Source: Marsupella aquatica
Lineage: Eukaryota; Plantae; Marchantiophyta
DNA length: 64,000 bases
Direction: 5' to 3'
Assembly: GCA_973895155.1 (NCBI GenBank)
Contig: OZ316896.1
Span: 6,376,166-6,440,165, forward strand
Both the position numbers and the translations under genes were made by a program. This document shows positions 15,654 to 44,960 of this stretch, piece by piece. The notes beneath the pieces are model-generated. The model ran no database searches. It saw only the letters and a program-made list of their open reading frames with translations, and was not told the DNA's origin. Every line of letters begins with the position of its first letter. Position 1 is the first letter of the stretch.

Positions 15654-16912
15654 TGTCGTGATAATTCAATTATTCATGATGAAATCATTATCACTAAGTA
15701 TATTATTTAGTATATAGGTTAGGTTTATATTTTGTTACGAGTTAACTAAATAGTTTGACTATTACTTATGTGCATGCAAGGTAAGCAACTATGCAAACCA
15801 CAAGATGCATGCACAACTTGTTTTATTTTCATGCATTAGTCTTTGTTTTATGTGCATGCAAGGTGAACAAATGTGCAAGCCACAAGGTGCATGCACAAAT
15901 TATTTTAGATGCATGCAAATTGTTTTATGCGCATGCATTGGTTATTTTATGCGCATGCAAGGTGAGCAAATGTGCAAGCTACAAGGTGCATGCATGCACA
16001 AATTGTTTTAGGTACATGCATTAGTTGTTTTACTTGCATGCATTATTTGTTTTGATTGCAATAATATTAGCACACATTCCTACGTTGGATGTGTGACACT
16101 TGGCTTTCATCCAAGCGTGTGGGCGTAATCCATGCCCTCTTGGATTCAATATAAATAAAATGGCGAGAGGCACTCTCTCCTCATTCCCACATTTTTTATC
16201 ATTTCCACGTCGAAGCGATCCTCTTTTTTTTCTCATCTTTCTCTTCTATTCTTTGCCTTATGTATATAGTAGTGGGGCATCATTTGGCCCGGATAGCAAA
16301 GGAATGAGTGGTAGACTTATAGATGAGACCTTAGGGAACAAGGTCTCTTTGGGAACTTAAGGGTGGGACATCCTTTGGCCCGGATAGCAAAGGAACAAGA
16401 TAGTCATTATGAATCCAGGAGGGAGAGATATTCCTAATCTTCCCTTTCGTAACCCATTTTTGGTTAGAGTCCATCTTTTAGACAAGCCATCCATGAGGTA
16501 ACATTTAACTTATCACTTTGGAGCTCAATTTGCAGCTGCTGTTATGAGTTCTAATGAGCCAATAGTATACCCAGTAGTGTCTTACCGAGAGGAGTGAGAG
16601 TGCATTATCTTTGTCCTTTATTGAAGTCATGGATCTAAATAGGAGTCCAGATGACATTCCTATTTCATTTTCTCTTGGAGATATTAGGATTGTATAACAT
16701 AGAAAAATTAGTTTCCGAGGTATGTTGATCCGCAAGTATGGTGAACTAAAATAGGATTTAATAATATATTAGTTTCACCTGAATCTTTCTTAATACCCAC
16801 CACCCTTCTTACAAGAGTTATCATTTTGGTTTAGGTATAAAACTTATGGGCATGCAAGGTTAACTTCATAAGAGCCAACATGCTCTTACCAGAAAACATG
16901 GTCACCCAGACA
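15654..16912 (+). repeat. 5' LTR
   Basis: TGTCGTG...CCCAGACA; aligns end to end with 39775-41046. Confidence 0.95.
15768..16045 (+). promoter_or_regulatory. Three ~85-90-bp tandem units with about a dozen CATGCA (RY) motifs in the LTR U3; also at ~39890-40180
   Basis: Repeated GTGCATGCAAGGTGAGCAAATGTGCAAGCCACAAGGTGCATGCACAAATT. CATGCA is the known B3 (ABI3/VAL) site; function here is inferred. Confidence 0.6.
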
Positions 16913-16916
16913 TAAG

Positions 16917-16934
16917 TGGCGACCATACTGGGGA
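16917..16934 (+). other. Primer binding site TGGCGACCATACTGGGGA (resembles tRNA-Arg-type PBS)
   Basis: Starts with TGG 4 nt after the LTR-terminal CA. The tRNA identity is from recollection of Tat/Ogre PBSs. Confidence 0.7.
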
Positions 16935-17029
16935 ACCGCTGGATTTTGGAGTTAGCTTGTGCATGTCTAAGTTTTGGTTGATGAAGAGAGATATGATTTT
17001 GGAACTATAAATCCTTCAATTGTGAGTAT

Positions 17030-19760: not shown

Positions 19761-22246
19761 ACAATGCGGGATGGTGGGGCGCTATCTCTGATGATGCGCT
19801 GATGGCTTGGAATGTGAATAGTTTGTTGACAAGCTCATCTGAAGGTGAAAGCTTGCATTGTCGAATTTCTTATGTGAAAGTGTGTGAAACTACTAGAAAA
19901 TTCAAAAAGAAAATTGCGAGGATTGAGGATATTATGCAAATACATGGATTGCTAGAGGAATGTGAGGAGATTGAAGACCTTCTAGATGAAGAAGGAGTGG
20001 TAGTCTCTTTGGAAGAAGTAATTGAAGGTCTTTCAGAGGGGAGAACTTTTATGGAAATCAATCATGAGTTGTATGGTGAATTGTCTCAATTTGTTGAGGT
20101 CAACACCAAGTACAAAACGGTGGACAAGAAAGTGAGACCAGCGGCACTTCCTTTGCCTTTGGATGCTAAGGAGAGTCTGGAGAAGGCAAGGAAGGAGACC
20201 AGTCTTAGAGATTGGACTAAGATTGGCCATAAATTCACAGAGGAGACCCTTAATCAACTAAGGATTGGCGATGATGGGTTGTTGACAAGGAGAGAAAGAG
20301 AGAAGTTTTGACAAATGATTGGTGAACATGGTAAAGCTTTTGCCTTTTATCCTGAAGAGATGGGATGTGTGGATCCTAGTGTAGTTACTCCTATGGTGAT
20401 TTTCACTGTCCCTCATATTCCTTGGGACTTGAAACCTATTCTGGTGCCCAAGGCTTTGTTGCCTAAACTTGTTGATCTATTGAAGGAGAAACTTTCCACT
20501 AGGATCTTGGAAAAAGCAGATGCACCTTATTCTAATCGTTGGTTTACCATTCGCAAGAAAAATGATAAACTTAGATTTATTCAGGATATGCAACCACCCA
20601 ACAAGGTTACTATTTGCAACACTAGGATAGGACCTATAGTTGATGAGTTTGTAGAAGAGTTTGCCGGTAGAGCCATCTATTCATGTGGTGACCTCTATTC
20701 AGGCTATGATCAGTTTCAGTTGGCTCAAAGTAGCAGAGATATCACTACAATGAGGACACCTTTGGGGCTACTTCGCATGTGTACTTTGCCTCAAGGAGCA
20801 ACCAATTCAGTGGCACACATGCAGAATGCCATAAATAAAATACTACATCATTTTATTCCAGAGAAGACTCAACCATTCCTTGATGATATGCCAATCAAGG
20901 GGTGCTTGGAGGCAAAGAAGGATGAGACTGTACGAGAAGATGGGTTGCGACAGTTTATATGGGAGCACATTCAGGATGTGAAGGCCATCTTGAAGAGACT
21001 GATTGAGGTTGGGCTCACTCTTTTTGGAGAAAAATCTTCATTTGGGCTCTGTGAAGTCCTGATTATGGGACAGATTTGTGGAGTTGAAAGGAGGAGGCCA
21101 AATGAAGGAAAGGTGGATGCAATCAATCAGATGAAAGATTGCAGAACATCTTTAGAGATGCAAAGATTTCTTGGTGCTTGCTTGTTTTACAGGGTTTGGA
21201 TTCCACACTTTGCACATATTGCTGATCCCTTGTATGGATTACTAAGGAAGAATGTGCAATTTGTTTGGACTGAGGCACACAAGGAGGCTATGCAAAGATT
21301 AAAGGAGGTATTACTTAGCCCCCTTCTTCTACGTCCCTTATGCTATGATGGGAGGCCAATCATTGTTACTGTCGATTCAAGCCCTGATGCTGCTGGATGG
21401 GCAGTAGGGCAAGATGATGAAGAGGGAAGGAGATTTGCATCAAGGTTTGGGGCTAAGGTCTTTTCAGCAAGACAAAGACATTATCCTCAAATCAAACGAG
21501 AATTATGGGGTGCAAGAACAACTTTGTGTCAAGAAAAGGTCTACTTGATTGGAGCACAAGTAATTCTTGAGACAGATTGTTTACCACTTTTAGGGATGAT
21601 TGCTAATTGTGATACTCAAGATATTGCTATGCTACGTTGAATAGCTTTTATAAGAATGATCAATCCTTAGCTTCGACATATTGCTAGAAAAGATAACCTT
21701 GTAGCTGATATGATGTCAAGAGCTCGATATGATCATACTGAAATATCTGAAGCAGTTCAAATAATGAGTGGAGAATTTGAGATTTTACAATTTCAAGAGG
21801 AACTGTATTCTGGACAGTTGCTTTTGATTGGGAGGTACCTTAGTACTCTTCAAAGGTCTTTTGAATTGACAGATGATGAGTTTCAGCGATTACGGAAGAA
21901 GACTTACAAGTTCATGCTGAAGGATGGTGTCTTATGGAGAAGATCTTTGAAGAAAGGACATGCTCCATGTAGAGTCCTTGATACTAAAGAGGAGAAGAAA
22001 AAGGTCTTGTGGGACTCTCATGATGCAGTTGAAGCACGACATCGAGGAGTTAGAGCTACTTATGAGCGGATTCAGAGATGGTATTGGTGGTCAGACATGT
22101 ATGTGGATGTGAAATCATATGTTGGGTCTTGTAAGACTTGCCAATATTACTCTAAAGTTTGATTTAGGGATGGGCTTAATCCTACTAGTCCTTTATCATT
22201 ACATTTTCAGTGGGCAATAGATGTGGTGCACATGCCATTGGGAGTT
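19742..22246 (+). pseudogene. pol 5' part: RT, RNase H, integrase HHCC and start of the core
   Basis: DLYSGYDQF, LPQGATNS, FLDD, VTVDSSPDAAGWAVGQ, ILETDCLPL, SHDAVEARHRG...CKTCQ, WAIDVVHMPLGV| then CACTA. Premature stops at 20309, 21638 and elsewhere. Confidence 0.93.
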
Positions 22247-22269
22247 CACTAGTAGAAACCGGGGGGTAT

Positions 22270-22580
22270 TTAGACCCCATTAAACGACTATTCAGTACCG
22301 TATAGGACTTGGAAACGACTGGGAAGGACTCTAGTCCTTTATAGGATTGCGAGTCGTATGTTTTGTTACTATAATCAACTGAGTCCTTTATAGAACTGGT
22401 TTATAAGTCGTTTAATAGACTGGATTTTCAGTCTATTTTAGTCTTTGTGTGGGTAGCTTTGGTGAGTCGTTTTTAGTCTTTTATGGGCTGCGATGATGAG
22501 TCGTTGGGAACGACTAAAAAGGTTATGGAGGGTAGTCTTTAAATATACTTTGTGGGGTATGTATAAGTCTTTTATGTCAA
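22270..22580. repeat. CACTA subterminal motif array (AGTCGTT / AACGACT variants in both orientations; also 38665-38785)
   Basis: More than a dozen short motifs next to the TIR, typical of TnpA-binding arrays. Confidence 0.7.
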
Positions 22581-23072
22581 CTGGATATGAGTGATGAAGA
22601 CCCCACTATACTACTTGGAATGAACCCACTCTTGTGCACAAATAACATATTGCATTCATGTTTTATTGTGTACTTGGAATGAACTCACTCTATAAGTTCA
22701 CCATTCATCATGTTAACATTAGAATACATAGTTTCAGAAAGCCATCTTCTATACCATGTACACTAATATGAATTCACAGATTCAAACTTCATAGACTACA
22801 AAGAAGGTCACAAAGTATTCCTCTATACCATACACACTAATACTGAAATGATAAAATAGATTCAAGTATCATAGACAATCACCATAGAGCCATAGTTTGA
22901 CATCAATCACTTGTTTCATACATACAGAATTCAGAAATATCAATGTCACACACAACGTCTCCTTCATCCTCTTTACCAAATGGAAAAATTGGTACAGATA
23001 TTTCTTGGATCTTTCCAAGGCAATGTCAAAATGTGACACAATTCACATGATGCTATCTACACTTGCATTCAG

Positions 23073-26000
23073 TCACTGCAGACTAACACACTCTGATGGC
23101 CAGAGCACAAGAGATCCTACTGCATCTGCAATTATTTCCTGAGGTGGATCATCGTCTCTATTCGGAAATGGCAAATTACAATCAGATACAATCACTGTAG
23201 TCAACAACACTACTACATGGTCATCCGGGACCACTTTGCCATGGAATTTTGCATGATCCGGTCGCAAAATGCTTGTACCCACACATACCTGCGAGTCATC
23301 CTCCCATGATAGAAGATTATGGACTGGCTCTGCTGTGGCTATCACCTCCACCTTACCCTGGCTGTTTTTCTTGGCTTTCCTGGGTGGCTTATACATGACA
23401 TTATTCATACCTTGGTTGCGAGTCATGACTTTGGCACGAGTGTTTTGTGCTGGTGATCGAGAATTGGCTACACTCTTCTTCAAAGAATCTGCATCCATAT
23501 TTGACACTTCTAATTGTGTAGCAGGATTTCCCTACGACATCATCTCAGTATCTGCCAACATTGTACTTGCTTCAATTGAAGCATCTACAATCTTACTTGC
23601 ATCCAATGTTGCTCCCAAGTTTCGACGTCGCTTCACCCTACTCCCACTTGGTTGAGAGTCTGTCAACTCTACATCAACTACAATTCAGTGTCATGTCCAA
23701 CATAAGTCAATCACTCATCACATGTGCTAAATGTACATGTCACCAACCACAAAGTTGTCACTATCTCCTTACCATTATGAACAACCTTCTTCCCCTTCTT
23801 TGCCATTGCCATATGCTCCATGTCTGCTTCTGTTGATCAATAAACACACCACAATATTCAGGTTGAATCTATTAACCACTGAATTGTTGCTCAACATTCA
23901 TATAGAGGAATTTAAAGCATCAGCTTACCTGATACCTCCTTGGCTATGGTCACTGAGGCACTGGGCACATCTTCTTCATTATTGCTCTTTGAATCACCTG
24001 ATACATCAATCATGATGTCACTTCAGATCCCAGTTCATCCAACCAGTTCTTACAGAAAAGATTACCTCCAACCGGCTTAAGCTTCACAAAACTCCATGCA
24101 CTTTTCAAATGTAATGTACTGGATCATAGCAGGTTACCTGTCTCAACAACCTTCTTGCCCTTCTGCTTACTGATTACAGGGTCCTTCTCTGCCTCCACTC
24201 TTCCTGCATTCAAACCATTCACTCAATTCATGAAAACTTACTTCTAACATTTGAACATAGGACACAATGAACAATGGGCCGGTGTCATTTCCATACCTGT
24301 GTCAGATTTGCCAATTCCCTTTTTTGTTAACAAGGGCACACTTTGTACAATGTTGCCCTCATTGTTTGGTTGGGAACCACCCAATTTTTCAATCACAAGC
24401 TTGAAATTAGATTCCACTGATGCAAGAAGGTTCGCACAGATGCCTCCACAATATCCAAACGATCAGCCAATTTACTTTCCACTCGAGGGAGTCCACACTC
24501 TAATGACTTCAACCGTTCACACATCTCTGTGAGAGTTGTAACAGTTCCCTGTCATAACACAACTTACATATCTCAGATAACTGTCCCCAAGAACTGGTTG
24601 CTTACTTCCTACTACATTTCTTTCTGATGCTCAAGGCCAAATAGTCACAGAACATACAGAATTACAACATAATCACCTGTTTGGAAGTTACACTTGTCAC
24701 CTCACTCCTTTGTTTCATGAACTCCTCTCTCACTTCTTGTGCTGATGGTTCTTCACCTGTCAATTTCTTCTGCAGTCCACATCAACATACATATGAATGA
24801 AACCAAGTGTTGATTGTCAATGAAAATGTAATAATGGTAGCAAGATGATAAGTTTGAGGCTTACTATCAGGCATGTCACTGCCTTACCAATTGTTCTTTC
24901 ACTAGAGCATAACTTCCTCTCCCAGCCTGTGAAAGGTGTTTCACTTTGCCTCGAGCATTTGACATCAGTTCACTCTTGCTCTGTCCAGCCTCCGACATGA
25001 ACCCTTTGATTAACCGTGTCCATTGATCCAGTTCCAATGATGGGGGTGGTGGCATTCTCCTGTTAGAACCATTGTCTATCCACATCCTTTTCAACCTATG
25101 CCTCTCTTGTTTCAAAATCCTCATTGCATAATCTGATATGCAATCTTCAACTGGGCCCTTACCATCATTACCAACATACTCCCACCGTTCAAGAATGTCC
25201 TTGCAGATAGCAGCCCAATTAGCTTTGTTCTGACTCCTAAACTCTGTAATGCTCAAATCTAACCAACGCAATACTTCTCCTCTTAGGTCAGAATGCCAAC
25301 GGTTCTTACCATCACATGTGGGAGTTATCCAACCTTTGGAATTCACTTCTACTTTACCAAATTTGTTACTGTCTCCTGCCTTGGTACTCCCTGAAGCGCT
25401 ACTAGGTGTCCCTCCACGGCCTGGTGTCCCCCCACGGCCTGGGGTCCCTCCACGGCCTGATCTCCCCCCACGGCCTGGATTGCATTGTCCAAACCTCCCT
25501 GGAGTCCCTGCACATTTACAGGATCCATTTACAGTCACTTACATTAGGTAAGTATGAATCATAAATCCCGCTGCCAAATATACAGTGGACTTCAAAGCAA
25601 TTCTGCAATGACCAAGTTACCTCTCCCTTGGTGCATAGATGGTTCTGGACCACCTGTCCTATTGCTTTGTCTTGATGAATTAGGGGCGTTTCTCCCGCCT
25701 GTGAATGATTGCCTCCTATCTGAACATGGATGGCCTTTGTTGTTTTCGTGATTGTCCCAATCAGAGTCTGCATACCAACAGGTACATGCCACACTCATGG
25801 ACCTATAAGATAAACTCTTTGCCCTAGCTACACATCAGATAAGTGCATATTGAGCTAAATCTCTACTACCATCACAAAATCACTAGCACAAGGCACTTAC
25901 TTGTCCAATCATCCTCCTCACCTTTCCATTGCCCTCTGTACCCGTCTCTACCACGCTCTGGGTGTTCATATTCATCCCATCCATCTTCTGCTCCATCATA

Positions 26001-26261
26001 GTCATCATCATAATTATCAGGCGTCCCTTGCCAATAACTCTGGCTCCTTCTAGGGTATGGATTATGTGATTTCTCTCTAGCTGCCCACCTACCTGGGACT
26101 TGATGAGGGCCCTGTGCATCTTGCACAGGTGCATTTTTCTGTGAGCCCCCTGCATCTGGGTCTCCATCCATATCCAATCTTTCCTCTTCACCCCACTCTC
26201 CAAGCCCCATGTCTGTCTCCATGTCATCACCCTCTTCCCCCATAGCTTCACCCACAACCAA
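23073..26261 (-). CDS. Multi-exon TnpA-like protein (Ptta/En/Spm Transposase_24-like domain and C-terminal Tnp1-like domain)
   Basis: Exon 24876-25538 has QWTRLIKGFMSEAGQSKSELMSNARGKVKHLSQAGRGSY. Last exon has FHGKVVPDDHVVV...LPFP...IADAVGSLVLWP. Acidic N-terminal exon. Exon boundaries and intactness not fully resolved. Confidence 0.75.
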
Positions 26262-26412
26262 ACAGGGAGAATCAGCACACTAAATTCAAAGTATCAATCA
26301 ATTTCATGCATATCCAACTATCCTAAACATCATTCCAGGCAGCAATTCCCGTTATGTGACTCTGTGCAGGTAGTCATCCTCAACCTCATACTTGCCAATC
26401 GCCAGCTGTTGC

Positions 26413-29400
26413 CTATTGCAAATCATCAACCTCATCATATTCCATTTGCCCAGGTTCATCATATGTCTCTCTCAATGTTAAGGGGATGTAGTCAGTCCCT
26501 GCCCGAGTTGGAAGTACAGTCTCATGACTAGGATGCTCGAATGCAGCATGGTCATCCAAACTGAACTCTACTTTACTTCCATCCATCCGCCTGTTCCGTG
26601 CTTGGCTATGGCATACCACCCTCCAGCCATGTGACTCCTCCACATCTGCAAAGAAAGCCTGTTCAACTTGGCTAGGGAAAACAAAAGGCTCAGACCATTC
26701 TGGTACTCTGGACCTAAAATTGGCCAACAAGAACCCATCATGATCACGCTTCATGGTGGCCCTTGGTCTCTGCCACTCTGATTTCACCCATGATCCCTTC
26801 ATCAATATCACTAGGACACTTGTGTTACCATAATTCAACACCCAAATGTCGGTCAACTCCCCCACGTAACCCATCTTCATCCACCCCCTCTGTTCTTCAG
26901 AGGTTCTCTGCTCAAACACAGAAATCAAACCACAATCATATGATACACAATGGTCACCCTGCTCATCCCTCACTCGATAATGATTTCCATAAGCTCTCAT
27001 CCGTTTGTAGGTCAGAATAGACAATCGTGGTGGCACAGATAGAAGATACAAATCCTTCTCCATATCTGGGTGATGTCTACTATGCTCTCGAATTGTCACC
27101 CGAATCCACTGCTCGAACTGTGGGAAGGGATCCTGCTGCCCAGAGTGTGCAACTTTTTGCATATCATATTCCCTGCATTATGAGGTACAGGCATAGTTAG
27201 GTCTAAACAACACATGACAACCTAAGATCACCCTTGGAACAGACAAGAAGCATCACAACAAAGGCAAGTCAATTCAATCACTCACCTCCACCATGGTTGC
27301 ATAGGCTCTGTGTTTGCCAGCACATATGAATGAGCCTTGTCTCGAATCGCAACAGGCAGCTGAACAGCACGTCCCACACCTTCAACAACCTCGCCACTCA
27401 CTCCATCATCTTCACCAGATTTCCAAACTCTTGTCATAGCTTCACCAGACCCAGCCATGTACTCTGTTAGGAATCCCAACGTCTCATCCTTAATGTACCC
27501 CAATGCCATGGAAGCCTCTGGCCTGTAGTATGTTCTCACATGACCTTTCAACAACTTCATGTATCGCTCCATAGGGTACATCCATCTGGTACTGACTGGC
27601 CCATACTGCCCTAGCTCTTCTACCACATGGATTAGGAGATGAGTCATAACATCAAAGAAAGCAGGGGGGAAGTATATCTCCAAGTCACAGAGGACATAAG
27701 CAGCATCCTGCTTCAACTGCTCCAATCCTTGGGGATCCCACACTTTCACACATATACGGCGAAATACATTGCACAGTCGAAGAATGACATTACGGACTGG
27801 TTTCTGCATGAGACCTCTGAGGCATAGGGGCAGAATGTGCTGCATCAACACATGGTAGTCATGTGTTTTCATACTGCCAAGTTTATTCTTTGTAATATGC
27901 TTCTTGAAGGCACCAGCATAGCCAGAGGGCACTTTCAGACAGCTCAATCTATACAAGAATGTCTTCCATTCATCCTGTGTGCACACATAGGGAGCTTGGA
28001 ACTTGAGAAGTACATTGGGATTGCTTGCATGGGGCTTCAACCAAAGGTGAGGGCGAATCCCCTTCTATTGCATATCAGCTCGAACTGCTCCTGTATCTTT
28101 CTCACCCGACAAGAACTTCAGCAAGCTCTCACAAATATTTTTCTCAATGTGCATGACGTCCACATTGTGTTTGCTGGGCTCGAATTCCTGCACTCCACAA
28201 AGCAAAGAATTCAACAACAGAAACACTAATTAACCACATAGGAGGATTGTAACCAACATCAATCCACCATTGCTCCAATCTAAAATTGCAATCATACAGG
28301 GGCTGGAGGCTAAGTACATTACCCTCCAGTACTCCAACTCCAAGTCCATCAAGGTCTGTCTTTTCACACCGTGTTTCACCACTGGATCCTCAGGTTCTCG
28401 ATCAGTGGCACTTCTCTTGTCCCAATCAGCCTTCCTGGCTGCCCACCTCAGGACTTGCTCTCTGGTGACCCTCTGTGGTGGGCCACGAAGCTCTATTTTG
28501 TTGTTGAAGTGTGCAATTTGAGACCGTGTGTGCCTGTAAGGATGATCAACAGGCAGATACCTTCTATGCCCCTGAAATTTCATACTATGCAGGGCATGCG
28601 ACCACTCACTTGTCACATTTTTCCCACATGGTGTGCACCCCACATAGCCCTTTGTCACTCGTCCAGATATGATGCCATGGCCTGGGTAATCTGCTATATC
28701 CAGCAAACAAATTGCATGCAGTCTAAAGGGGCTGGGTCGAAGAAGCCCCTTCAGAACATCATGGGTTAACACCCCTTCTATCCACAAAGTCTTCCACTCT
28801 TCCACTGCTGGAGCCAACATGATATCTATGAATTGCTCGGTCACAGAAGCTGGTCCAAGGATTAACAGCACCATCATGACAAAAAACCTCTTTGTAGTCA
28901 TCCATGGGGGAAGGTTGTAATTTAGCAGCGTAACCGGCCAACATGAATAACGGTTGTTTTTGTCTCCAAATGGGTTTACTCCATCCAGTGATAGACCAAA
29001 TCGAAAGTTCCGCTTCTCTACAGCAAACTGTGGCCACCTCTCATCAACAAATTTCCAATGGTTGGAATCTCCAATGTGACGTTGCAGGCCATCACTGCTC
29101 TTGTTATCAGGAGTCCATGTCATCAGCTTGAAAATGGCAGGGCATCTAAACAGACGTTGTAGTCTAGGAATGAGAGGAAAATGACGAAGAACCTTGGCAG
29201 GGTGTGTACATTTCCCTACATTCTTGTACCTATGCTTACCACAATGAGGGCATGTCAATTTATCTGCATGCTCTTTGCGAAAGAGAACACACCCATCAGG
29301 GCATGCGTCAATAGACACATAGTTCAGCCCAAGGTTAGACATCAATTTCCTAGCCTCGTACATATTTTTTGGAATTGAATTACCATCTGGTAACACATTT

Positions 29401-30113
29401 CGGCGCAGGAAGGTCAACAACTCTGTCACAAATATATTGGGAACATTGTGATTGCCACAGATGTTCAACAACAACACGACAAAACCCAGCTTGGAGCAGT
29501 TCGACCCCTCGTAGATAGGAATGCAAGCTTCTTTGATGTGTTTTGGGCCCCCAAACACCCACTCCCTCTCTGCTGCACCTTCCCCAATGTCAAAGTCAGG
29601 TTGAGCTTGGCCGTCGCCAATGTGTGGCTGCGGTTCATTGTCCTCTTCTGATTCCACTGTGTCGTAAAAAGCATCAAGGTCTTCAAAAATCTCTTGAACC
29701 ATTCTTGGGACATCCATCCCACCGTCCTCAGTGATTGCCTCTGCATCTCCATCTTGGTCATCCACGTTCTCATGTTGGACCCCAGGACCATCCTCTGCAC
29801 AATCTATGTCCTGCTCTACGTAGTCTCTACGCCTAGCTGTATTAGAATCCACAAAGTCAGCTCTCCACTCTTCATCAGAGGAGTCTTCTTCTGCTGGTAC
29901 ATTCCAAACCCTCCACCGAGGGTGCCTTTCATGCCGCAACAGGTGAAGGTGCACAGTGTTCAAACTCAACGACTTGAATCCTTGGCACTGTGTGCATGGG
30001 CATCTCATCCTCCTACTCCTACCTTGGGCGGCCCGGGCTTGTTCACGCATCCACAATTTAGAATCATGATGCCTAATCCTAAATGGGTTGTGAAGAGGCA
30101 ACCTTGGAGCCAT
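26413..30113 (-). pseudogene. CACTA TnpD/Tnp2 transposase (Transposase_21, DUF4218, DUF4216); 3 exons, one premature stop
   Basis: Exons ~30113-28323, 28187-27286 and 27173-26413 with GT-AG ends. Motifs MRCPCTQC, IDACPDGC, LSLDGVNPF, DIADYPG, HNVDVMHIEKNICE, MKTHDYH, RWMYPMERY, EPFVFPSQVEQAFF. In-frame TAG at 28065-28067. Confidence 0.93.
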
Positions 30114-30439
30114 CACTATACACACGCACTCAGCACCCTGTCATTTTATTATGCAAGTGAAAAATACACTTCCTGTTAAGGATTTCACCCCCGACTGTAC
30201 TTGCCAAAATACGTAACGTTCCAAAAAAACAAAAAAACAAAAAATATAGGTGCCTGAGTCATGTACCTATTCTCAAGTGAATGAGACAAAATTCCTAAAT
30301 GTTTGAGGGTGTCAACTCCTCCGCTGTCCTCACATGTACTGCCTCTGCACGTACATCCATGACCATATCAGAGTCCAATCATGTATAGTCATAGACACAG
30401 GTGCCAGGTGCGAGACCGGTGTGAGATGTCCTCATCTTA

Positions 30440-31009
30440 CTACCACATCAAATACGGATACCAATCCTGTTGTCGATGCCACTCAGCCCTGAGGTACTCA
30501 GGCATGTACATTAAGTCATCAAGGTCTAAACCCTGCTCATGCCATGGTGGTCTTCGATCCGTGCCTACAAGCAGTGGCAGCAGTGCCCTCCATGGTGCAC
30601 ATGTTGCTACCAAGTCCCTCCACTAGGTACTAATTAGTCTATATTTGCAGATATCTTGTGCGCCAGACACCACAAGAACCCTCGGCCAGACATGTGTAAG
30701 AACTATATCATCTGCCAAATCAGGCAACAAGGAACCACCTACAGCATCGTGCTTGTCTAACTCATCTGCTGAAAAGTAAATGTCCTCTTCCGACTGTGCA
30801 TCCTCATTCACCACAGCATTCACAACACATCCAAGGTCTGCAGGCATTATCTCGGATGGAGCTACACTCTGTCTGGTTACCAATCCACACAAGTAAGCCC
30901 AAGCAGTAGCCATGCACGATGCAACCCGTAGGAGGACCCTACATAGGGCCTGACGGTCTGGAAGAGGCAGCATACCCACCAAAGTCTTCAGCCAAACAGA
31001 GCCCAGCAA
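30440..31009 (-). pseudogene. F-box-like protein carried by the CACTA (one in-frame TAG at 30623-30625)
   Basis: SLLPDLADDIVLTHVWPRV...ICKYRLIST*WRDLV matches the F-box pattern LPxLPDD...L..VSxxWRxL. The frame continues 60 codons past the stop. Start codon uncertain. Confidence 0.65.
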
Positions 31010-31149
31010 GTAGATTCACAGTCACACCCCACGCAGCAGGAAACAACAATCACTTCAACTGCGACCAACCATGACAAGATGAGTTAGTTCAAGGATCACA
31101 TTTATTACAAAATTGTGTTTTATACAAAAATATGAAGGACTCCTACTCC

Positions 31150-31998
31150 TCACTCTCTCCCACCTTTGCTAAGCATACATCTCCGCTGAATCTTGGAGGG
31201 CCAGGCCTCAAAAATATCAAAGTCCCAAGCATTCTGTCGCTTCCCTCTAGCTGCTGATTCTAGAAGCCAATCAGGGGAAAGCACCCAAAGATTGTTGTTC
31301 ATGACAAAATCACGCACTGTTGTCTTAAAGAATTTTCTACATATTTTCATGTATGACAGACCTACAACATGAGTGGAGGTTTCTGTTAGACTCTCCTCCA
31401 CTGTCCCACCTAGCTCAACAACTATAGACTTGTACAGTCTGCACTTAGTCTCCCCAATTCCTTCTTCTGCAAATACCACACTGAACCCCTTCATAATGGT
31501 ATTTCTCTCCTTGCCATGCTCATTCAATATAGCATCTGCACGCATAGGATGGTGTCCTATGTTGACAACAGGTCCATATTGGACAGAAGCAAAGTTGGGT
31601 TTCTCTGCCGCTGCTTCATAGGCTTCCTTTTCAGCCAAAGCCTCTGCAGTGGCCTCCTCACTCTCCCACAACTCATATTGCTCAGTACTCTGTACACACC
31701 TATGTTTAACAGAATCGGTCAGCCAAGAGACTTCAACTACTTTTAGACCTTGGTTGGTAATGGCAGAATCAATGAAGGACCATGACCACTTGTTCATCAC
31801 ATCCAGCCATGTCCCCGCAACAACATGTGTAGTCTGTGGAGTGATGTCCTTGACTTCAGTCCCATGGAACTCTGAGAATCGTTTTTGTACGATTGGCCAA
31901 CTCACTTGGGTGAACCCATAGTGGCCAGGAATCAAAATGGCTTTGATTCCAGCCAACAGAGGCGGGTGGTCAACCTTTGTACGTTTCCTAGAGGCCAT
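31150..31998 (-). CDS. Intronless tandem-BRCT protein (~282 aa) carried by the CACTA
   Basis: Two BRCT signatures: TTHVVA...VVEVSWLTDSVK...YEL and LGGTVEESLTETSTHVV...VLSPDWLLES. Basic N-terminus RKRTK. TATAAAT ~80 bp upstream. Confidence 0.85.
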   Translation of the reverse strand: MASRKRTKVDHPPLLAGIKAILIPGHYGFTQVSWPIVQKRFSEFHGTEVKDITPQTTHVVAGTWLDVMNKWSWSFIDSAITNQGLKVVEVSWLTDSVKHRCVQSTEQYELWESEEATAEALAEKEAYEAAAEKPNFASVQYGPVVNIGHHPMRADAILNEHGKERNTIMKGFSVVFAEEGIGETKCRLYKSIVVELGGTVEESLTETSTHVVGLSYMKICRKFFKTTVRDFVMNNNLWVLSPDWLLESAARGKRQNAWDFDIFEAWPSKIQRRCMLSKGGRE

Positions 31999-32586
31999 GT
32001 ACACACGGGCCACCTAATCACTGCAGACCGGAAGATAATGCGTTCACCTGATAATCGGAGGGCCCTTAAAATGCTGCATTTATAACTTGGTCCAGTCCAG
32101 TCATCTGGTGAGTCTCTGCTCCGATTCCAAACGGGAGAAATATTGGGACAAACGTACTAGACACCTGCAAGCATGCACCTCATAGTTTGAATATGTGCCT
32201 TCACAATATTGAAGGTGACAAGTGCAATTGTTTTGTGATGCCACATACAGATGTTGTAAATGGGCAGACATTCAATGAGAATACAAAATGTTGGTACACT
32301 TTAAGGGAATTCTCGCAAATTAAATAGCCTTGTAACTTATATGCTCATAATGAGAAGTCCTGATTTAATTTAAGCAGTGTCATGTAAGTCGTGATCAAAA
32401 TGATTGCAGAGTTAAAAAAGTTCCTAGAAGGCTTAAGGGCAGTTTTTGAAGGCATGTACCCAGGAACAAGTAATGAACTTAGGGTACTTGTTGCCTAAGC
32501 ATCCTCTCCTACAGAGGTCCTTCTTCTCAAAATTGGAATGTCTGCAATCTCCAAGGTATCCACATCAGGTGCACTATGCATGTATA

Positions 32587-33276
32587 TTATTCAGGTTCAA
32601 AGCCAAGAGTGTGATCTCTCATGGGAGTGTGCAAAGTAGGATCTATGGCATGGCGATGACAATAGAAGATCCATTGATCAACACCATGTGCAGAGTGATC
32701 ATAGATGTGTCTGTCACAAGCATAGCCTTCTGCTTGACGCTCCTTCAAACAATGAAAGTGCCACATGGTGGGACACCTAACACAGTGGACTATGTCCACC
32801 CAGAAATCTTCATCGTGCTGACCACATGCCTTGCACTTATGAAGTGGGCAAGCTGTGGCAAGATCGGGCAAATATGAAAAACAAAAGAACCTCACACAAT
32901 ATCTGTCAGGGCATTTCCTAACAAGTGGTGGAGCATCAACAGAGCCCTCATAAGACCCCAACTTCCCACACTGTGCACACTTAGCCTGCTTCTCCAAACA
33001 ATCAGTGCACATCCAGCCTCCCTGGTGTGCTGACGGGAGGCCCACCCCTGGACAGTTGTTTTCTGCAGCAAGGTCAGACTCCGGGTTGAGGTGGAAATGC
33101 CTCATGCAAGGGCCCTCACATATGGCTAAGCCACCACCATCGTCACAAATGGCACAACAATGAGCTGCCTTCTGGAAAATCTGACTTGCGGAGAAGTTAC
33201 TACCATCTGGCCCAACTACACCTGTGTTGCTCACCTCTGTCCCCCGCTTCTTGGCTCGGATTTTAGGGCGTGCCAT
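32587..33276 (-). CDS. Intronless stand-alone EDM2-like PHD-finger protein (229 aa) carried by the CACTA
   Basis: CAICDDGG...CEGPCMRHFH...CTDC...CAQCGKLGS...CPLHKCKAC...CVRCPTMWHFHC...IFYCHRHAIDPTLHTPMRDH follows, as I recall it, the EDM2 PHD region (CPLHKC...CRRCP.SYH..C...IYC..HEID..L.TP.RDH). N-terminal basic patch. Confidence 0.85.
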   Translation of the reverse strand: MARPKIRAKKRGTEVSNTGVVGPDGSNFSASQIFQKAAHCCAICDDGGGLAICEGPCMRHFHLNPESDLAAENNCPGVGLPSAHQGGWMCTDCLEKQAKCAQCGKLGSYEGSVDAPPLVRKCPDRYCVRFFCFSYLPDLATACPLHKCKACGQHDEDFWVDIVHCVRCPTMWHFHCLKERQAEGYACDRHIYDHSAHGVDQWIFYCHRHAIDPTLHTPMRDHTLGFEPE

Positions 33277-33945
33277 GCCTACGCATGAGACAGATAGTAC
33301 AATTTAGCAGAGTGCACGGACAATACAATTTAGTGCAGTGTACAAAAAGTACAGTGTAGCATATAGACTAGAGTGGTAATTGCTACTGCAATGAAATGTT
33401 CACACACATGTGCAGAGTAGACATACTTTTTGGTTTGTTGAGCCCACACTAAAAACTGATCCCCTCGTACAATAGCTCCACCTACACCTCAATTTTATGG
33501 CTATGATTCACCAAAGGAGATCTGCAACAAGATTTAATGCATTTGAATCACATATAACAGTCGTGACATGTAAAACATGCATTTTTTGAACAGGATTGGT
33601 ATCAAGCAGTGTGATCAGGGTTGTAATTTATACATCCTAAATAGGCTATGATAGTGAATGAGACAAATAAGTTAGGCATAAATCACTTTTTCCAGGTTAT
33701 CACATGGCCCATTAATTCCAGTCTTTGAAAGGAGACTTTTAAGTGAGCGTGCTAGCCTCTTAAATTAGGATATTGTACTTAGTGCAGCCATAATAGGATA
33801 AGTTATGTACTGTTGACCCTAAACCCTGGACCCAAAATTGGTCATAATTCAAAATCTTAAGTAAATATCCTCTCTGTTCAAGTCAAAGTGTTAAGTTATA
33901 GGTCAATGGTCTCTGGTTTGTGCATGCGGTGTGACAAGTGGTCCT

Positions 33946-34395
33946 CTAGAGCGTGTGATCCAAACATGTGTAGACACCAAAGTGACCGGTGGTGGGGTCT
34001 GGGAGGGCAGGACAAGTGACATCGCCAGGCACACTACAGGATGGCGAGTGGTTCCAGATGATACATTGTGCTCTATGAAAAAACCGACATCCAAGAGAAC
34101 GGTCATCCAACTCTAGGCCAGAAGCCCTACAAGCAGGACAGTCATATTGGCAACTGTGCACACACCCTTGGGCCCTAATTTGTGGCGGGTCATGTACAAG
34201 AGACAGAAATACCAAGGATGTTGGGAAGGGTGGAGAAGCAGGTACAGGCCGGTTGTAGTTGTTCCTGGCAACAACTGGGTACTCAAAGTACCATGCAGAC
34301 TGGGCTGGAAGGATCCCAAGTCTGACATACTCAAGGCGCAACATCTCTGCCTTGCGTGCAAGCCGCACATGTTCAGCGTTGCGGGTCCTCACCAT
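33946..34395 (-). CDS. Hypothetical Cys/His-rich protein (149 aa) inside the CACTA
   Basis: ATG-started open frame (MVRTR...) on the same strand as the other cargo, with CVHSCQYDCPAC...CRFFHRAQC. No family recognised. Confidence 0.35.
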   Translation of the reverse strand: MVRTRNAEHVRLARKAEMLRLEYVRLGILPAQSAWYFEYPVVARNNYNRPVPASPPFPTSLVFLSLVHDPPQIRAQGCVHSCQYDCPACRASGLELDDRSLGCRFFHRAQCIIWNHSPSCSVPGDVTCPALPDPTTGHFGVYTCLDHTL

Positions 34396-35774
34396 AAGTG
34401 TTGCTTTTGTGGAGATGTCGTGTGTTCACGTCCTCTGATAAGCACCTTCGATCAGCAAGGTGAGCAGGAGCTGTACTTGCCTCACCAACAGCAACCAACC
34501 TTAAATTATCAGTTCCCACTCACTGTGTCATTCCATTGGTTCCAGCTAGGGGTCACAGTGTAAACAGAGCATGAAACACTCCTAATCAACTTGCTTACAA
34601 ACTACAATATCCAGAAAGAGTGAAAGTCTCACCCTCCAGTGAGCAGCAGAGAGGTAGTTCACTAGATGTGTTGATGTGCAGTTAAACCTCCACTATTGCT
34701 TACTTCTGGTGTATGCTGCTCAGAAGAAGACATATTAGTAGCAGCAAATTGCAAATAATGGCCATAAGCAAACCGTGAGAGTTTGCAGAATGCTACGACA
34801 AATCCATCACAGCAGTGCTCCACAGGAATGAAACCAAGCAAAATTTGGTGACCTCGGCCAATGACAAGGCCAATGTAGTGAACAATCCTTGACCGATCAG
34901 GATATGGATTGGAATTACAATTAGTCAGCTCTTCTTCTTTGTTTTCTAACTCTGGGGGAAATGAGCATGACCAGGGAATTCTCTGAGAAATAGAAGTGCA
35001 CAGGGAAAATGAAATTGGCTCATTCAGCTGCGCAAGACCGACCATTGCAGCATACTTGGACAGTTGTTCCGCAATACACTAGTATGACAGGAACTCAAGG
35101 AAACATTTGTGGCAATGTCTTCACAGGAAAAGAAGAATCGCTAAGTACAGTATTCTTAATAGTAGTTTCATTCTAATTCTGAAATCTACACATAGGATGG
35201 AAACCCAGGACATTTCTCATGAAAATTGAAGATCCATTCAACAACTCCATGATAGCCTATTCCGCATTGTGTCCGTCCCATGCAAGCGAGGGGTGTTCAG
35301 CCGAGCTTAGTCTAACCACGAATGATTGTTCTGGAAGCAATTGCGACAATGTTTTGGTAATTTTCTCCTACCCAACTCAATAGCTCACAAACATGGCATT
35401 GGACCCATTAACAAATTATACTTGCCATCATTCTCAACTGTATTACATGGCCCACACTGCTGATGTCCCTGACTCTTAAGGGAAACTCATCTCCTGGGCC
35501 AGCAACATCTCAGATTCTACAAAAATAAGAAACTATGAAGACTTATTGAAGTCATATCCTGTGATTGTAGCATGTATGATTCACTGGGACTGCAAGCAGT
35601 TCTAGATCCTGCTGCACTTTATATACAGCAGCAACCTGAGCTCCATGAACTTGTTTTTAATAGACGTGCGTTTGACCATGGCTACAACTCCAAAACAATC
35701 AGTCATCCAATCAAATCATAACAAAACCCACCCGCAAGCTGAATGTAGAGGATAGAGACAGAGAAAATCACCGG

Positions 35775-36014
35775 GGCAATGAAGTCGGATCACAGGGTGC
35801 GAAACTAGTACTCAACAGGGTAAGACCGATCACAGCAAACAAAGCACGGAGCTAGACCACCAAAACTCCAGCAAGACAGTGTCGTGTCCATTTATTTGTA
35901 GGGAATGAAGTCGGATCACAGAGTGTAAAACTAGTACTCAGTAGGGTAAGACAGATCACAACAAACAAAGCTAACACAACAAAGCACATAGAGGAGCAAA
36001 ACTCCAGCAAGACA
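35775..36014 (+). repeat. Diverged ~125-bp tandem duplication
   Basis: AATGAAGTCGGATCACAG...AAACTAGTACTCA...AAAACTCCAGCAAGACA occurs twice. Confidence 0.8.
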
Positions 36015-38819
36015 TAAATCAGACCTCGCAGCCTTTTGACTAGCAAAGGGAGATAGTCTACGCTTTCCATTGCTGGTCACAGCGCGACGGGCAATCAGGA
36101 TGATGCCATGCCGAGTAGAAGAACAACAAAGCATTCTATAAAAAGCACTGAGGTTGGCGTTATAGTAAAAGTGGTAGTACTTCTAGTAGCGCGACCAACT
36201 CGCTAAGTGACAGTCCGGAGTAGCTTACCTCCGAGAAGAAAGCCAGAGCAGTTTAGCAGAAATCCCCAAGAAAATCCCCACTCTGAAGATGGTAAGCTTG
36301 CAGCTGCTCCCCCGGGTGCTCCCCTCAACCTCGCCACTTCTATTCTGAGCAGCGCAGGTCCTCTCCACCCTCTCACCTTGCACCTCCTGAACAGGTGACC
36401 AGCACTATCCACTCCCACCGCAACTGTGGACGGTCCCTAAAAAAATGCAGATGACAGCGACCAATAGACAAAGGATTACATGCGTAGACCTGGCAGAAAT
36501 CTTCAGTGCAATGCTTGACTAAGCTGACCAGTATTTCTCAATAGGGTACCAAAAGCCACAGACAATACAAAAGGCAGTGACAAGCACAGGCGGTGGCAAC
36601 TAGCAAAGGCAGTGGCAAGCAAGCAATCAATGATGATAGCGGCAATCGGCAATGGCGGTGGGAGGCAGCAATAGGAATCACCTGAATGAAGTACCAATCC
36701 GCAGCGGGAGGGAATGTCAACCTTCTTGTCAATTGCAGACCACCTCCGACCTCAAGGTCTCCCTCACGTCAACACCTAAAATGTAAGTGATGACCCAATG
36801 TATCCTCCCTGATCGCAGCTCGTCCCCGCCCGCAGCTCGTCCCCACCCGCAGCTTCTCCCCGCATTGAGGTCCTCCTCGACCACAGCTCTTGCAGCTGCT
36901 AGGCCCAGCCTTTGATGGCCTTCTGCAATGTTTGCAGACAATGTCGCCTCCCTTTAAGCAGCTTGCCTTCCGTAGCAGTAGAAATCACCTATGCTCGAGC
37001 AACTTGAATGAAGTCACAACAATGGGAGCAGGCGGCGACGGGACTGTCAGCTCTCAAGCGCAACCTTCACAGCTCACTAACATTGCAGGACTGTAAAAAA
37101 TGACCGGTTCACGTTGTTACCGTAGCATCCCTGGCACACCAAATCCTTTGTCTCTAATTCCACCAACCAAGCGTTCGATGGTTGACAATGTGCAGCTGAG
37201 CTAGGAGAAGAACTGAATGATTGTGGCTGCTCTTCTCTGCAGTCCAAGCACCCGGCTGGCAGCTCCGCAAACCCTGATCGTAGCTGCAATCTCTACTCCG
37301 TTGATTGAAGAGCCTCCCTCTTCAAAGCTTGGTTGACCTAGCTCTACAATTGACGGAGCTTATCATCCTTTGCATCAAAAACCCTCCACCACCCGACCTT
37401 CCGCGTACTTCAGGAAGCTCCTTACCACCAAGCGCTTCTCGGGGATGCCTCGCAACAATGTCCTTACCACCTAACGACTCTCAAGGCTCTCCCAAACCAA
37501 TGCAAACCCCTTGCAATCTAATACACTATGTCCAAACAGAGGCAGAACTGTCAAAAGCGCTCGCAGTAGTGGACGCAGCAATGTGAAGTGAATGAGCTCC
37601 GACCTTCCCTCGCAAAATGCTTACCCTAAACTCTGCTCGTATGCTAAACTCACAAACATTCCGCAGGTCGTTCTGTCGCAAAGCACAAATGATGGGGCCC
37701 AAACGCATGGGGCGCGGACACTCGATACTTCCCTTCACAAAAACCCAGTTTCATACGATGACCAAAGCATACTCACCCTAACCCAAGACTTAGTGCAAAC
37801 AGGACCCTAAACGCTAATCCAGGGCCCGTTTCCGTTGAGTTGAGCCGTTATGCTTGATAAGTCATGGCCAGAGTCTTGATGTAGGGGAACAATGTGGACT
37901 TAATTAGGCAACAAATGAGTACATTTGGGTGAGGGTAAAGGATAACTTTAAATAAATCCCTTTGGTGACAAAGATGAGGCCACTTAATCAGTTGTGCCCC
38001 ACCCTAACCCCCCCCCCCTCCGGGCCCCCCTCATGGAATTACCTCTATCAAAAGTACCCTAAGTTATGAAAAGTACCCGTTACATGGACCTGTTTTGAGA
38101 GTTGAAAGATAATCAGAAGTAAAGGGACCATGGAGAAGAGGGGGCCAATGTAATTAAGTCAAGCATCACTCATTCAAAATCCACATGGACATAGTTGGGT
38201 ACTATATGAGACACCAGGGGACAAGACATTTTTGAAGGGTTGGCATATTTACCCTCATCCCTAAACTTGGATGTCTTGCACATAACATCCACTCTCCTAC
38301 CCCAAGTACAAAACAACTCCTAACAACTTAGGCCCAATGTAGTCACTTGTGCCCAACCATGTTCATTAAGAGCCTAAATGTTTTCATTTCACCCACATTG
38401 CATGTTGTTGGGGGTTCCATGGTCTGTTATTATAATGTAACTCCTCATGTGAACTTTGTGAAATTTAGTATTTAAGGGACCATGGAGAAAGTAGGCCAAT
38501 GGAGTAATTGGAACCATGAACCTTTTTGGTCACAAATAAGGCCATCTAATGAGTTATGCCCCTTGCTATCACCATCTTTATAGAATTAACCCTCTTCAAC
38601 ATAAGTGATCATTACCCATGTAGTGCTAGACTATTCACCGTTCACAAAGTAGCAAGGACCCTTCTCATAGTCATTTAGAGAACCATATAACACTAATAGT
38701 CTTTTATAGTTTTCAACAAAACCGACACAATGAGAGCGAGTCGTTTCAAGTATGGAAAAAGGACTTAGTGGGCTTAGTCCTATAAGGTATGGTCTAAATG
38801 GCCCCGGTTTCTACTAGTG

Positions 38820-39679
38820 GTTAGAGGAGCAAAGTACCTTGTCCTTGCAAGAGAAGATTTATCTTCTTATGTGAAAGAAAGAGCTTTGACCTCTAATACT
38901 ACTGAAGCAGTATGCAGGTTTGTACTTGAAGATATCATTGCACGTCACGGTTATTTTGTGCAAATGAGAGCAGATAGAGGAGAACTCAATTTGGATGAGG
39001 CTGCGGATTTCTTTGATCGATTCAACATCAAGCTCAAACTTACTACTGCCTACAACCCGGAAGGCAATGGGAAGATTGAGCGAGGGCACCCACCGATTGT
39101 AAATGCCTTGGTAAAGTCTTGCCAAGGAAAAGCATCAATGTGGCTAAACCTTTTATCGTTTGCTCTTTTAGCAGATTGGATGACATGCACTTCAACAACA
39201 GGATTTGCACCTATCAAATTGGTCTGTGGATATTTACCTTTAATGCAAATTGAAGAGAATGTTCAAAGTTGGAGAACAATTGATTGGAAAGATGACATCA
39301 CTCGAGAGGAATTATTGGAACGAAGGATTGAGCACTTTAGCCAGACCAAGGAGAAATTGAGGAGGCTTTACTAAGGCTAAAAAAGGCTCGTGAGAAGAAT
39401 AAGGAGCAATTTGATAAGACTCATCGTCTGAGGCCAATTCCAATCCAGAGTGGAGATTGGGTATTGATCTATGAAGCAGGACTTGAGCAACAATATTCTA
39501 CCTTAAAAAAGTTTGCACGTCATTGGAGAGGACCATTTGTTGTTGAAAAAGTCAATCCTAATGCAACCTACTTGGTTAGAGAACTGGATGGAGCGATTCA
39601 TCGCACTCCCTATGCAGGAAAGCGAGTGAAATTGTTCAAGCGGCGAACTCACTTTATGGCAAAAGAGAAAAAGTTTTGA
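38820..39679 (+). pseudogene. pol 3' part: integrase core and GPY/F module, no chromodomain
   Basis: LAREDLS, RADRGEL, AYNPEGNGKIERGH, WRGPFVVEKV...TYLVRELDG. Confidence 0.92.
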
Positions 39680-39774
39680 ACTAGATGACTTTGAAGCTTT
39701 GGATGAGGATGAAGATTATCATGATCTATAGGTGTGGTGCATCCGGAGGTTGCACAGGTTTGGTAGGGGTGATA

Positions 39775-41046
39775 TATCATAATAATTCAATTATTCATGA
39801 TGAAATCATTATCACTAAGTATATTATTTAGTATATAGGTTAAGTTTATATTTTGTTACGGGGTAACTAAATAGTTTGACTATTACTTATGTGCATGCAA
39901 GGTGAGCAAATGTGCAAGCCACAAGGTGCATGCACAAATTGTTTTAGGTGCATGCAAATTATTTTATTTGCATGCATTAGTTGTTTTATGTACATGCAAG
40001 GTGAGCAAATGTGCAAGCCACAAGGTGCATGCACAAATTATTTTAGATGCATGCAAATTGTTTTATGCGCATGCATTAGTTGTTTTATGCGCATGCAAGG
40101 TGAGCAAATGTGCAAGCCACAAAGTGCATGCATGCACAAATTGTTTTAGGTGCATGCATTAGTTGTTTTACTTGCATGCATTATTTGTTTTGATTACAAT
40201 AGTACTAGCACACATTCCTACGTTGGATGTGTGACACTTGGCTTTTATCCAAGCGTGTGGGCGTAATCCATGCCCTCTTGGATTCAATATAAATAAAGTG
40301 GTGAGGGGCACTCTCGCCTCATTCTCACATTTTTGATCATTTCCACGTCAAAGCGATCCTCTTTTTTTCTCTCATCTTTCTCTTCTATTCTTTGCCTTAT
40401 GTATATAGTAGTGGGGTATCCTTTGGCCCAAATAGCAAAAGAATGAGTGGTAGACTTATAGATGGGACCTTAGGAAACAAGGTCTCTTTGGGAACTTAAG
40501 GGTGGGACATCCTTTGGCCCGGATAGCAAAGAAACAAGAGAGTCATTATGAATCCAGGAGGGAGAGATATTCCTAATCTTCCCCTTCGTAACCCATTTTT
40601 GGTTAGAGTTGATCTTTTAGACAAGCCATCCATGAGACAACATATAACTTATCAATTTGGAGCTCAATTTGCAGCTGCTGTTATGAGTTCTAATGAGCCA
40701 ATAGTATACCCAGTAGTGTCTTACCGAGAGGAGTGGGAGTGCATTATCTTTGTCCTTTATTGAAGTCATGGATCTAAATAGGAGTCCAGATGACATTCCT
40801 ATTTTATTTTCTCTTGGAAATATTAGGATTGTATGTCGTAGAAAAATTAATTTTCGAGATGTGTTGATCCGCAAGTATGGTGAAGTATGATTTAATAGTA
40901 TATTAGTTTCACCTAAACCTTTCTTAATACCCACCACCCTTCTTACAAGAGTTATCATTTTAATTTTAGTGTAGAACTTATGGGCATGCAAGATTAACTT
41001 CATAAGAGCCAACATGCTCTTACCAAAAAACACGGTCACCCGGACA
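39775..41046 (+). repeat. 3' LTR, preceded by a degenerate PPT (GGTAGGGGTGA)
   Basis: Aligns with 15654-16912. The start TATCATA is TGTCGTG with G>A changes. Ends CCCGGACA followed by TSD CCGG. Confidence 0.93.
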
Positions 41047-44404: not shown

Positions 44405-44602
44405 TGTTGTAAACCCTAGTTTACCCCTTAACCATAGGGCGAGAACCCTTAACCATAGTATGAGAACTCCTAACCATAGGACCAGTATAAGGGCATTTGC
44501 CTACCATGTAACCAAGGGGATATATATATCCCCTCATCAATAGTAATGGATCTTATCTTGTTGGAGTATCTTTGAGCGTTCCTTTAGTTGTCTATTACAA
44601 CA
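44405..44602 (+). repeat. Copia 5' LTR
   Basis: TGTTGTAAACCCTAG...TATTACAACA. Confidence 0.97.
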
Positions 44603-44960
44603 CGTTATCAGCACGAGCCAGTCTCTAAAATCATTTTTTTTCAAGCAGATGCAATCGAGTTTTACACGAGGAGAATGCTCGTAAAGTGGCATTTTTTTTA
44701 GAAACTGCCATAACCGTTTTTTTTTCTTGGTCTCCATTCTTTTGCCTCAGAGTTGAATTTTTTTACAAAACACGAAATTTCACATAGAGCATCAATTCGG
44801 GACCAGCATATCGAGAGTCCAAAGGACTAATACTTTATTGGCATGATTGAAAGCTCCCTCAGCTCCATATACAAGCTTCCAACCGGTCAATTGTACAATC
44901 GAGATACTTCACTCGATTCAATCTTCACCAAAGTTCTTAAATCAACTGACATCCCGAATA

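Follow-up and report, generated by a model that had tools for sequence, protein, structure and literature searches.

The closest described relatives of the gene reported here are EDM2 and the land-plant EDM2-like proteins, which carry three atypical PHD fingers closed by a distinctive C-terminal tail. EDM2 belongs to the AAE complex together with ASI1/IBM2 and AIPP1/EDM3, and the Arabidopsis protein binds H3K9me2 according to papers that cite that finding. PHD domains have also been described within transposable elements (TEs), namely in the Rehavkus and Ginger1 transposases and in the polyprotein of the Chlamydomonas element Gypsy-7a_cRei, and a role in chromatin engagement or targeting has been suggested for them (PMC6446971, PMC2836005, PMC9940879). 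Moreover, host-derived sequence can be captured between CACTA ends, giving Pack-CACTA elements (PMC13317346), and TnpA is reported to bind subterminal motifs in Arabidopsis Spm (bioRxiv 10.64898/2026.08.24.746577). Here we describe a stand-alone EDM2-type triple-PHD gene that lies in a CACTA/EnSpm element of Marsupella aquatica.

The window analysed is a stretch of 64,000 nucleotides (contig OZ316896.1, positions 6,376,166 to 6,440,165), whose features are collected in Table 1. The CACTA element is complete and spans 16.6 kb. A 3-bp target duplication, GTT, flanks both CACTA ends, short subterminal repeats of the AAACGACT type lie next to the left terminal inverted repeat (TIR) and mostly at that end, and contigs in 4/4 sequencing runs join position 22243 to 38820/38821 and thus represent the empty site. 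These data bear out the first-pass annotation, which had placed the PHD gene inside a transposon that landed in another TE. The interrupted element is a Gypsy whose break point falls between Integrase_H2C2 and rve, and its LTRs (~15661-16912 and 39782-41046) are 94.6% identical. The same annotation had read the landing site as a hint of targeting; this we do not follow, because it is one insertion in a window made up nearly entirely of TEs.

Table 1. Coordinates of the features recognised in the window (position 1 is its first nucleotide).
Feature	Position	Strand	Detail
Complete CACTA/EnSpm element	22247..38819	minus for every recognised gene	16,573 bp; CACTA termini, empty-site joint
Left TIR	22247..22264		18 bp, perfect; GTT before it at 22244-22246
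Right TIR (element 5′ end)	38802..38819		followed by GTT 38820-38822
TnpA-like region	23073..26300	minus	several exons; placed after TnpD and by Transposase_24 match
TnpD transposase	26413..30113	minus	three open frames, 28230-30113, 27282-28064, 26413-27177
F-box-like stretch, possible third cargo	30440..31015	minus	resemblance judged visually alone
Twin-BRCT ORF, second cargo gene	31150..31998	minus	282 aa; Pfam BRCT E 6e-14, 2 stretches
Stand-alone EDM2/NSD-type triple-PHD ORF	32587..33276	minus	229 aa, ATG to TAA, uninterrupted
C-terminal codons of PHD ORF	32587..32610	minus	shifted by one-base gap relative to relatives
Codon 135 of PHD ORF	32872..32874	minus	TAT (Tyr), Cys in family; damage private to window copy
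Predicted splice acceptor	33277..33300	minus	TAG two bases before PHD ATG; sequence context
Overlapping open frames	33946-34563	both	159 aa minus, 148 aa plus
PHD-tail-like relic	35219..35284	minus	47/67 nt; reads HGVVEWIFNFH
Weak match to middle of relative P0004	36382-36519	minus	E 0.009
Host Gypsy	15661..41046	plus	split inside integrase by CACTA
350-nt inverted copy	1-356 / 50696-51047		50 kb apart
Nested inverted repeats	4735-5210		MITE- or fold-back-like
Copia element	44405-50276	plus	identical 198-nt LTR stretches, open 1575-aa polyprotein; very young insertion
Open frame resembling host gene exon	54406-54813	plus	no Pfam match; presumably TRM13-like
LINE remnant	61578-64000	plus	DUF4283 and endonuclease domains

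Read from its 5′ end, the minus strand of the element contains ~5.5 kb without a recognised gene, followed by the PHD, BRCT, F-box-like, TnpD and TnpA-like regions, with the TnpD start 8.7 kb from the 5′ end. TnpD is well recognised by Pfam (Transposase_21, E 1e-58; DUF4218, E 2e-27; Transpos_assoc and DUF4216), and the Transposase_24 match of the TnpA-like region (24879-25538) has an E of 0.017, under the curated cut-off. TAG stands two bases before the ATG of TnpD, as it does at the PHD gene, an arrangement (YAG-NN-ATG) found at 15/457 ATGs on the minus strand of the element. The sequence context of these two starts suggests splicing from a common leader.

The second cargo gene has relatives in Logan that are 62% and 54% identical, and its protein may act with DNA repair where the element excises or inserts; its predicted structure is of low confidence (pLDDT 33). 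Polymerase lambda as a possible origin found no support, the PDB match (E 0.27) being no better than that of other BRCTs. The F-box-like stretch (LLPDLADDIVLTHVWPRV) lies directly upstream of TnpD, contains an in-frame stop at 30623-30625 and gave no match in Pfam or the PDB. Upstream of the PHD gene, the tail-like relic aligns with a score of 25, where the highest among 100 shuffles was 21. Judged by these alignments, it and the weak match further upstream are possibly the decayed remains of an older PHD gene copy. The plus frame of the overlapping pair in the same region has a weak FYVE match (E 0.009), and no family above cut-off was found for the 33946-34425 frame or the other upstream frames.

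Contigs covering the PHD ORF region numbered 70, 942, 60 and 32 in four runs of four studies, as expected of a multi-copy family, depth not being taken as copy number. None of the contigs listed joined PHD and TnpD. In all four runs contig cover over 35133-38558 was much thinner than over the rest of the element and some listed joints skip portions of it; this 5′ region may vary between copies. The element has a CG o/e of 0.35 and a CHG o/e of 0.86, the latter near several window segments (0.84-0.86) and above the host Gypsy (0.59). Both depletions are ordinary for the window and give no base-composition sign of shielding; CHG depletion as a mark of it was rejected after Markov correction. The proposal in the first-pass annotation that the protein shields H3K9me2 is therefore not borne out.

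The PHD ORF is intron-free and consists of a basic A-R-x-K N-terminus, 24 zinc-ligand positions and the C-terminal YCxxH...TP.R.H tail of EDM2-type modules, here IFYCHRHAIDPTLHTPMRDH, which matches the motif IxYCxxHxIDxxLxTPxRDH. Its frame was matched at E 9e-36 by a profile built from 98 host EDM2-like modules, and a six-frame scan of the window with this profile gave no second match below E 0.2. Pairwise, the ORF aligns to residues 225-429 of Arabidopsis EDM2 (P0174, EDM2_ARATH) with 62/208 identities (30%, E 6e-24), and it is 32% identical to Marchantia Mp1g03210. AIRE and NSD2 reach 17-18 bits (phmmer, NSD2 17.6 bits), far below EDM2, and a profile of the family described below matches NSD2 at E 1.5e-12 over a part that ends before the EDM2-type tail. 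Pfam places PHD-1st_NSD and PHDvar_NSD on the ORF, each slightly below cut-off. The RFD-like N-terminus and the acidic, PGR and methyltransferase-like domains of EDM2 (listed in PMC7529245) are absent and the PHD module alone aligns; no DNA-binding or effector domain was recognised beside it in the ORF. Thus the EDM2-type identity, the tail and the loss of the rest of EDM2, all read from the sequence by the first-pass annotation, stand. The predicted structure is a zinc-finger fold (mean pLDDT 71) with residues 1-28 disordered in the monomer model. Its top fold matches are PHD cassettes, weak ones (best Z 4.6; TM 0.2), the structure searches returned no solved EDM2 structure, and the best ESM Atlas cluster is an NSD-like PHD of Streptophyta (0.93).

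The first-pass annotation also called the ORF intact, which is right for its frame and slightly overstated for its content. The 24 ligand positions are conserved in 94-98 of the 98 host modules (His62 taken from the alignment), and 23 of them are Cys or His in the window copy. The exception is residue 135, where Tyr removes a PHD2 ligand. A recent G>A change had been proposed here, and this reading holds because Cys is found in 13/13 aligned relatives and the Cys variant of base 32873 makes up 97-100% of contig depth in the four runs. At the C-terminus, three of the four runs have contigs with one additional base behind 32607 (the whole depth of X1, a minor share of it in X2 and X5), which restores the HISWL-stop ending common to P0001-P0003 and P0008 in place of the DHTLGFEPE of the window copy. 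Given Tyr135 and the one-base gap, the window copy is slightly decayed.

Searched with a PHD profile, 1.84 billion representatives yielded 370 matches at E ≤0.001. Among the 150 matches listed, the top ones were short proteins like the PHD ORF and most others were long; those long matches that were looked up by name come from Mesotaenium, liverworts, mosses, a fern and angiosperms and are either EDM2 or PHD proteins without a name. A family of 21 relatives was drawn from these, 20 chosen by two motifs and one (P0134) by eye. The 13 with source checked came from Logan, JGI or ENA, none under a descriptive name. Metagenome and viral scans for DNA loci of the relatives returned none that was real (L001 is a 19-residue chance match), and the CACTA context of the gene is known from the window copy alone. 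In a 37-row tree, which took in a minority of the angiosperm rows and no partial members, a 100/100 branch sets the nine tested members apart from all other rows as a long-stemmed clade. A quick tree of 107 rows gave a support of 73 for eight members. The stem adjoins short paralogues of liverworts with weak support (85/60), and an AU test rejected none of the placements with fern (p 0.11), long liverwort (p 0.065) or moss (p 0.30) sequences. The closest host module is 38% identical to the PHD ORF (range 30-38%, for modules from outside the element's own host genome). A recent Pack-CACTA capture was rejected, since TnpD is present and host identity among the compared modules is ≤38%. Longer fused forms of the module numbered 0 among 409 candidates, a weak negative given that long EDM2s surfaced in another search.

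Despite pairwise identities of 37-79% among eight members, the zinc ligands are well kept. Cys or His occupies 214/216 ligand cells in nine near-full-length members (two of them near-identical siblings), and the mean majority is 0.98 at ligand columns vs 0.60 at others, figures obtained with a search profile that is rich in Cys/His and favours ligand conservation among the relatives found. This is not the random loss of ligands across copies that the first-pass annotation had named as counter-evidence. Moreover, of 40 variants listed (of 100), 16 are synonymous, where 24% would be expected (p 0.016; a count, not a dN/dS), and these 40 include zero stops and zero broken ligands. Short host EDM2-like proteins, mostly PHD module, occur in grasses and Marchantia (P0024, P0026, P0046, P0035, P0042, P0047, P0055), and because of such host genes the stand-alone form alone is no proof of a transposon function. 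Taken together, we consider it very probable that the PHD ORF is a selected accessory gene of the CACTA element.

How the module differs from its host counterparts is clearest at PHD1. In AIRE, D312 contacts H3R2 and D297 contacts H3K4, D297 and A317 occupy the cage position of K4me3 readers, and D297A is reported to cause a ~30-fold loss of binding (PMC2261226). The R2 side is retained in the family, with D/E at the D312 equivalent in 17/18 members and the G306 and L308 equivalents (G48, L50) in 9/9. The K4 side is changed: an acid within the three positions before PHD1 is found in 0/18 members vs 93/97 long host proteins, where it usually occupies -3, a shift of one from the register of AIRE. 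His stands at -2 in 16/18 members and at both K4-pocket positions in most. The Trp that K4me3 readers have two before the His ligand is absent, position 60 being His or Gln. All seven liverwort short paralogues likewise are without the acid and have His/Tyr at 60. Further along, Cys replaces the PHD2 His in 14/14 members (His in 94/98 hosts), and the linker after PHD2 is 7 residues long vs a median of 27 in hosts. Judged by these residues, the ORF is a remodelled EDM2 module and no plain excerpt of EDM2. We predict that the protein binds the H3 N-terminus with a K4 preference unlike that of canonical EDM2, or more weakly; by analogy with AIRE, loss of the K4-side acid could merely weaken H3 binding.

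We hypothesise, tentatively and ahead of any single rival, that the PHD protein serves as an adaptor by which the TnpA/TnpD machinery of the element is guided to chromatin. An EDM2-like gene of a streptophyte would be the source of an ancient capture in which every other EDM2 domain was lost, and the captured gene would be expressed via splicing from the 5′ promoter of the element. Its product would bind H3 A1-R2 through the kept G-x-L-x-x-C-D-G strand, and the changed K4 pocket would give it a mark preference differing from that of canonical EDM2. A reader that has no effector or DNA-binding domain would favour its own family only via a family-specific partner, and hence coupling to TnpA or TnpD is proposed. 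The adaptor would thereby bring TnpA/TnpD to nucleosomes in one particular kind of chromatin. Of the three options in the first-pass annotation (decoy, shield and integration factor), we infer that integration guidance is the best.

A second explanation, unlikely yet the first of the rivals, is that the protein acts on the element's own heterochromatin as a read-through or anti-silencing helper, permitting the long spliced TnpD/TnpA precursor to be made, as host EDM2 does where heterochromatin lies in introns. EDM2 is reported to suppress proximal polyadenylation in heterochromatic TEs (PMC10241880, PMC7529245), H3K9me is reported to persist on TnpA-activated Spm elements (bioRxiv 10.64898/2026.08.24.746577), and TnpD starts 8.7 kb away from the 5′ end of the element. 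However, the ORF contains none of the non-PHD domains of EDM2, and the CG and CHG values of the element resemble those of several other window segments.

The N-terminus invites a further reading, in which an H3-like tail docks in the protein's own PHD1 and so inhibits it, or lures the host's readers and writers of H3. Histone H3 itself begins with A-R-x-K. An [AT]-R-x-K start after Met occurs in 9/17 family members and in just 3/134 other Met-started matches, all three from a separate clade of stand-alone grass-type PHD proteins, and the window protein and four relatives match the H3 decamer at 5/10 places. The kept R2-binding acid is also in favour of docking. Nevertheless, 5/17 family N-termini are without M[AT]R and 3 more without the K, many long non-seed-plant EDM2s also begin M-A-R, and the basic start would be equally well explained by a nuclear localisation signal. 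Moreover, the N-terminal shuffle test is biased, as starts were chosen by M[AT]R, and the tail is disordered in the monomer model. We regard the mimic as improbable.

We give the same low standing to a passenger without a role for the element, be it a fragment of the Pack-CACTA kind or a second element nested around BRCT and PHD. It would account for the at least one motif block missing in 13/22 family sequences, which are partial or broken, for the damage to the window copy, and for a perfect 15-bp inverted repeat (30457-30471 / 33589-33603) that brackets BRCT and PHD. However, neutral fragments would not retain 24 ligands down to 37% identity. A nested element at this repeat was rejected because it has no target duplication, and the cassette is excised in none of 15 listed joints (of 115). 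Lastly, the decoy named first in the first-pass annotation, a dominant-negative competitor of host EDM2 for H3K9me2 chromatin, is the least credible reading: competitors are usually readers without effector domains, as here, but the K4-pocket positions of PHD1, with the acid before it missing, are unlike canonical EDM2, a diffusible competitor brings no family-specific gain, and EDM2 suppresses the early polyadenylation in heterochromatic TEs that a long spliced element needs suppressed, its loss being reported to shorten transcripts through TEs (PMC10241880).

Guidance of TnpA/TnpD thus remains our preferred reading, and a broader form of it can be sketched. RAG2 stands beside RAG1 as a PHD partner guiding a transposase-derived enzyme. 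It is conceivable, if quite unlikely, that an old lineage of plant CACTA elements carries a whole chromatin toolkit of host origin, in which the H3-like tail of the remodelled EDM2 reader plugs its own PHD until a nucleosome is met, the PHD protein serves as a RAG2-like guide of the transposase and the twin-BRCT protein recruits DNA repair where the cut is made. If true, a plant DNA transposon would encode a mimic of a histone as well as a distinct histone-reader subunit.

How a DNA transposon chooses its chromatin and lives with silencing is a largely open question, and those accessory factors of plant elements that have been studied to date (VANC, TnpA) use DNA motifs. A conserved stand-alone histone-reader gene in a CACTA element would be a direct test case for reader-guided transposition, and the family offers a series of naturally occurring variants of the EDM2 PHD module. 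CR1 LINEs are also said to carry a PHD, and as TE-borne PHDs are already known, what appears to be new from the sequence is the stand-alone EDM2-type PHD gene in a CACTA. Such a gene was not found in the literature searched, a body that lies outside Repbase and most subscription journals. A 2026 review on gene capture by TEs (PMC13317346), an Arabidopsis TE product atlas (PMC13547354) and the TnpA preprint (bioRxiv 10.64898/2026.08.24.746577) do not mention PHD, EDM2 or BRCT in their main text, though their supplements could list such ORFs.

Compared with EDM2, the PHD ORF shares the triple atypical module and tail, sits in a transposon without the introns and other domains, and belongs to a family with the PHD2 His to Cys change, a ~20-residue shorter linker and no acid before PHD1. 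The PHD1-3 cassette of NSD2/NSD3 (PHD-1st_NSD, PHD_NSD, PHDvar_NSD) is homologous to the module; here there is no SET or PWWP, and the match is much weaker than to EDM2. In Rehavkus, Ginger1 and Gypsy-7a_cRei the PHD is built into the transposase or polyprotein, whereas here a separate gene in a CACTA encodes a triple EDM2-type module. Unlike Pack-CACTA, the element has TnpD and a TnpA-like region of its own, and its cargo is an old conserved family. VANC of VANDAL and TnpA of En/Spm are likewise separate ORFs that help their elements against or on host chromatin; they act through element-specific DNA motifs, whereas the PHD protein is a host-derived histone-reader fold. By analogy, the arrangement resembles that of RAG2, the PHD protein also being a separate ORF and the proposed guide of a transposase.
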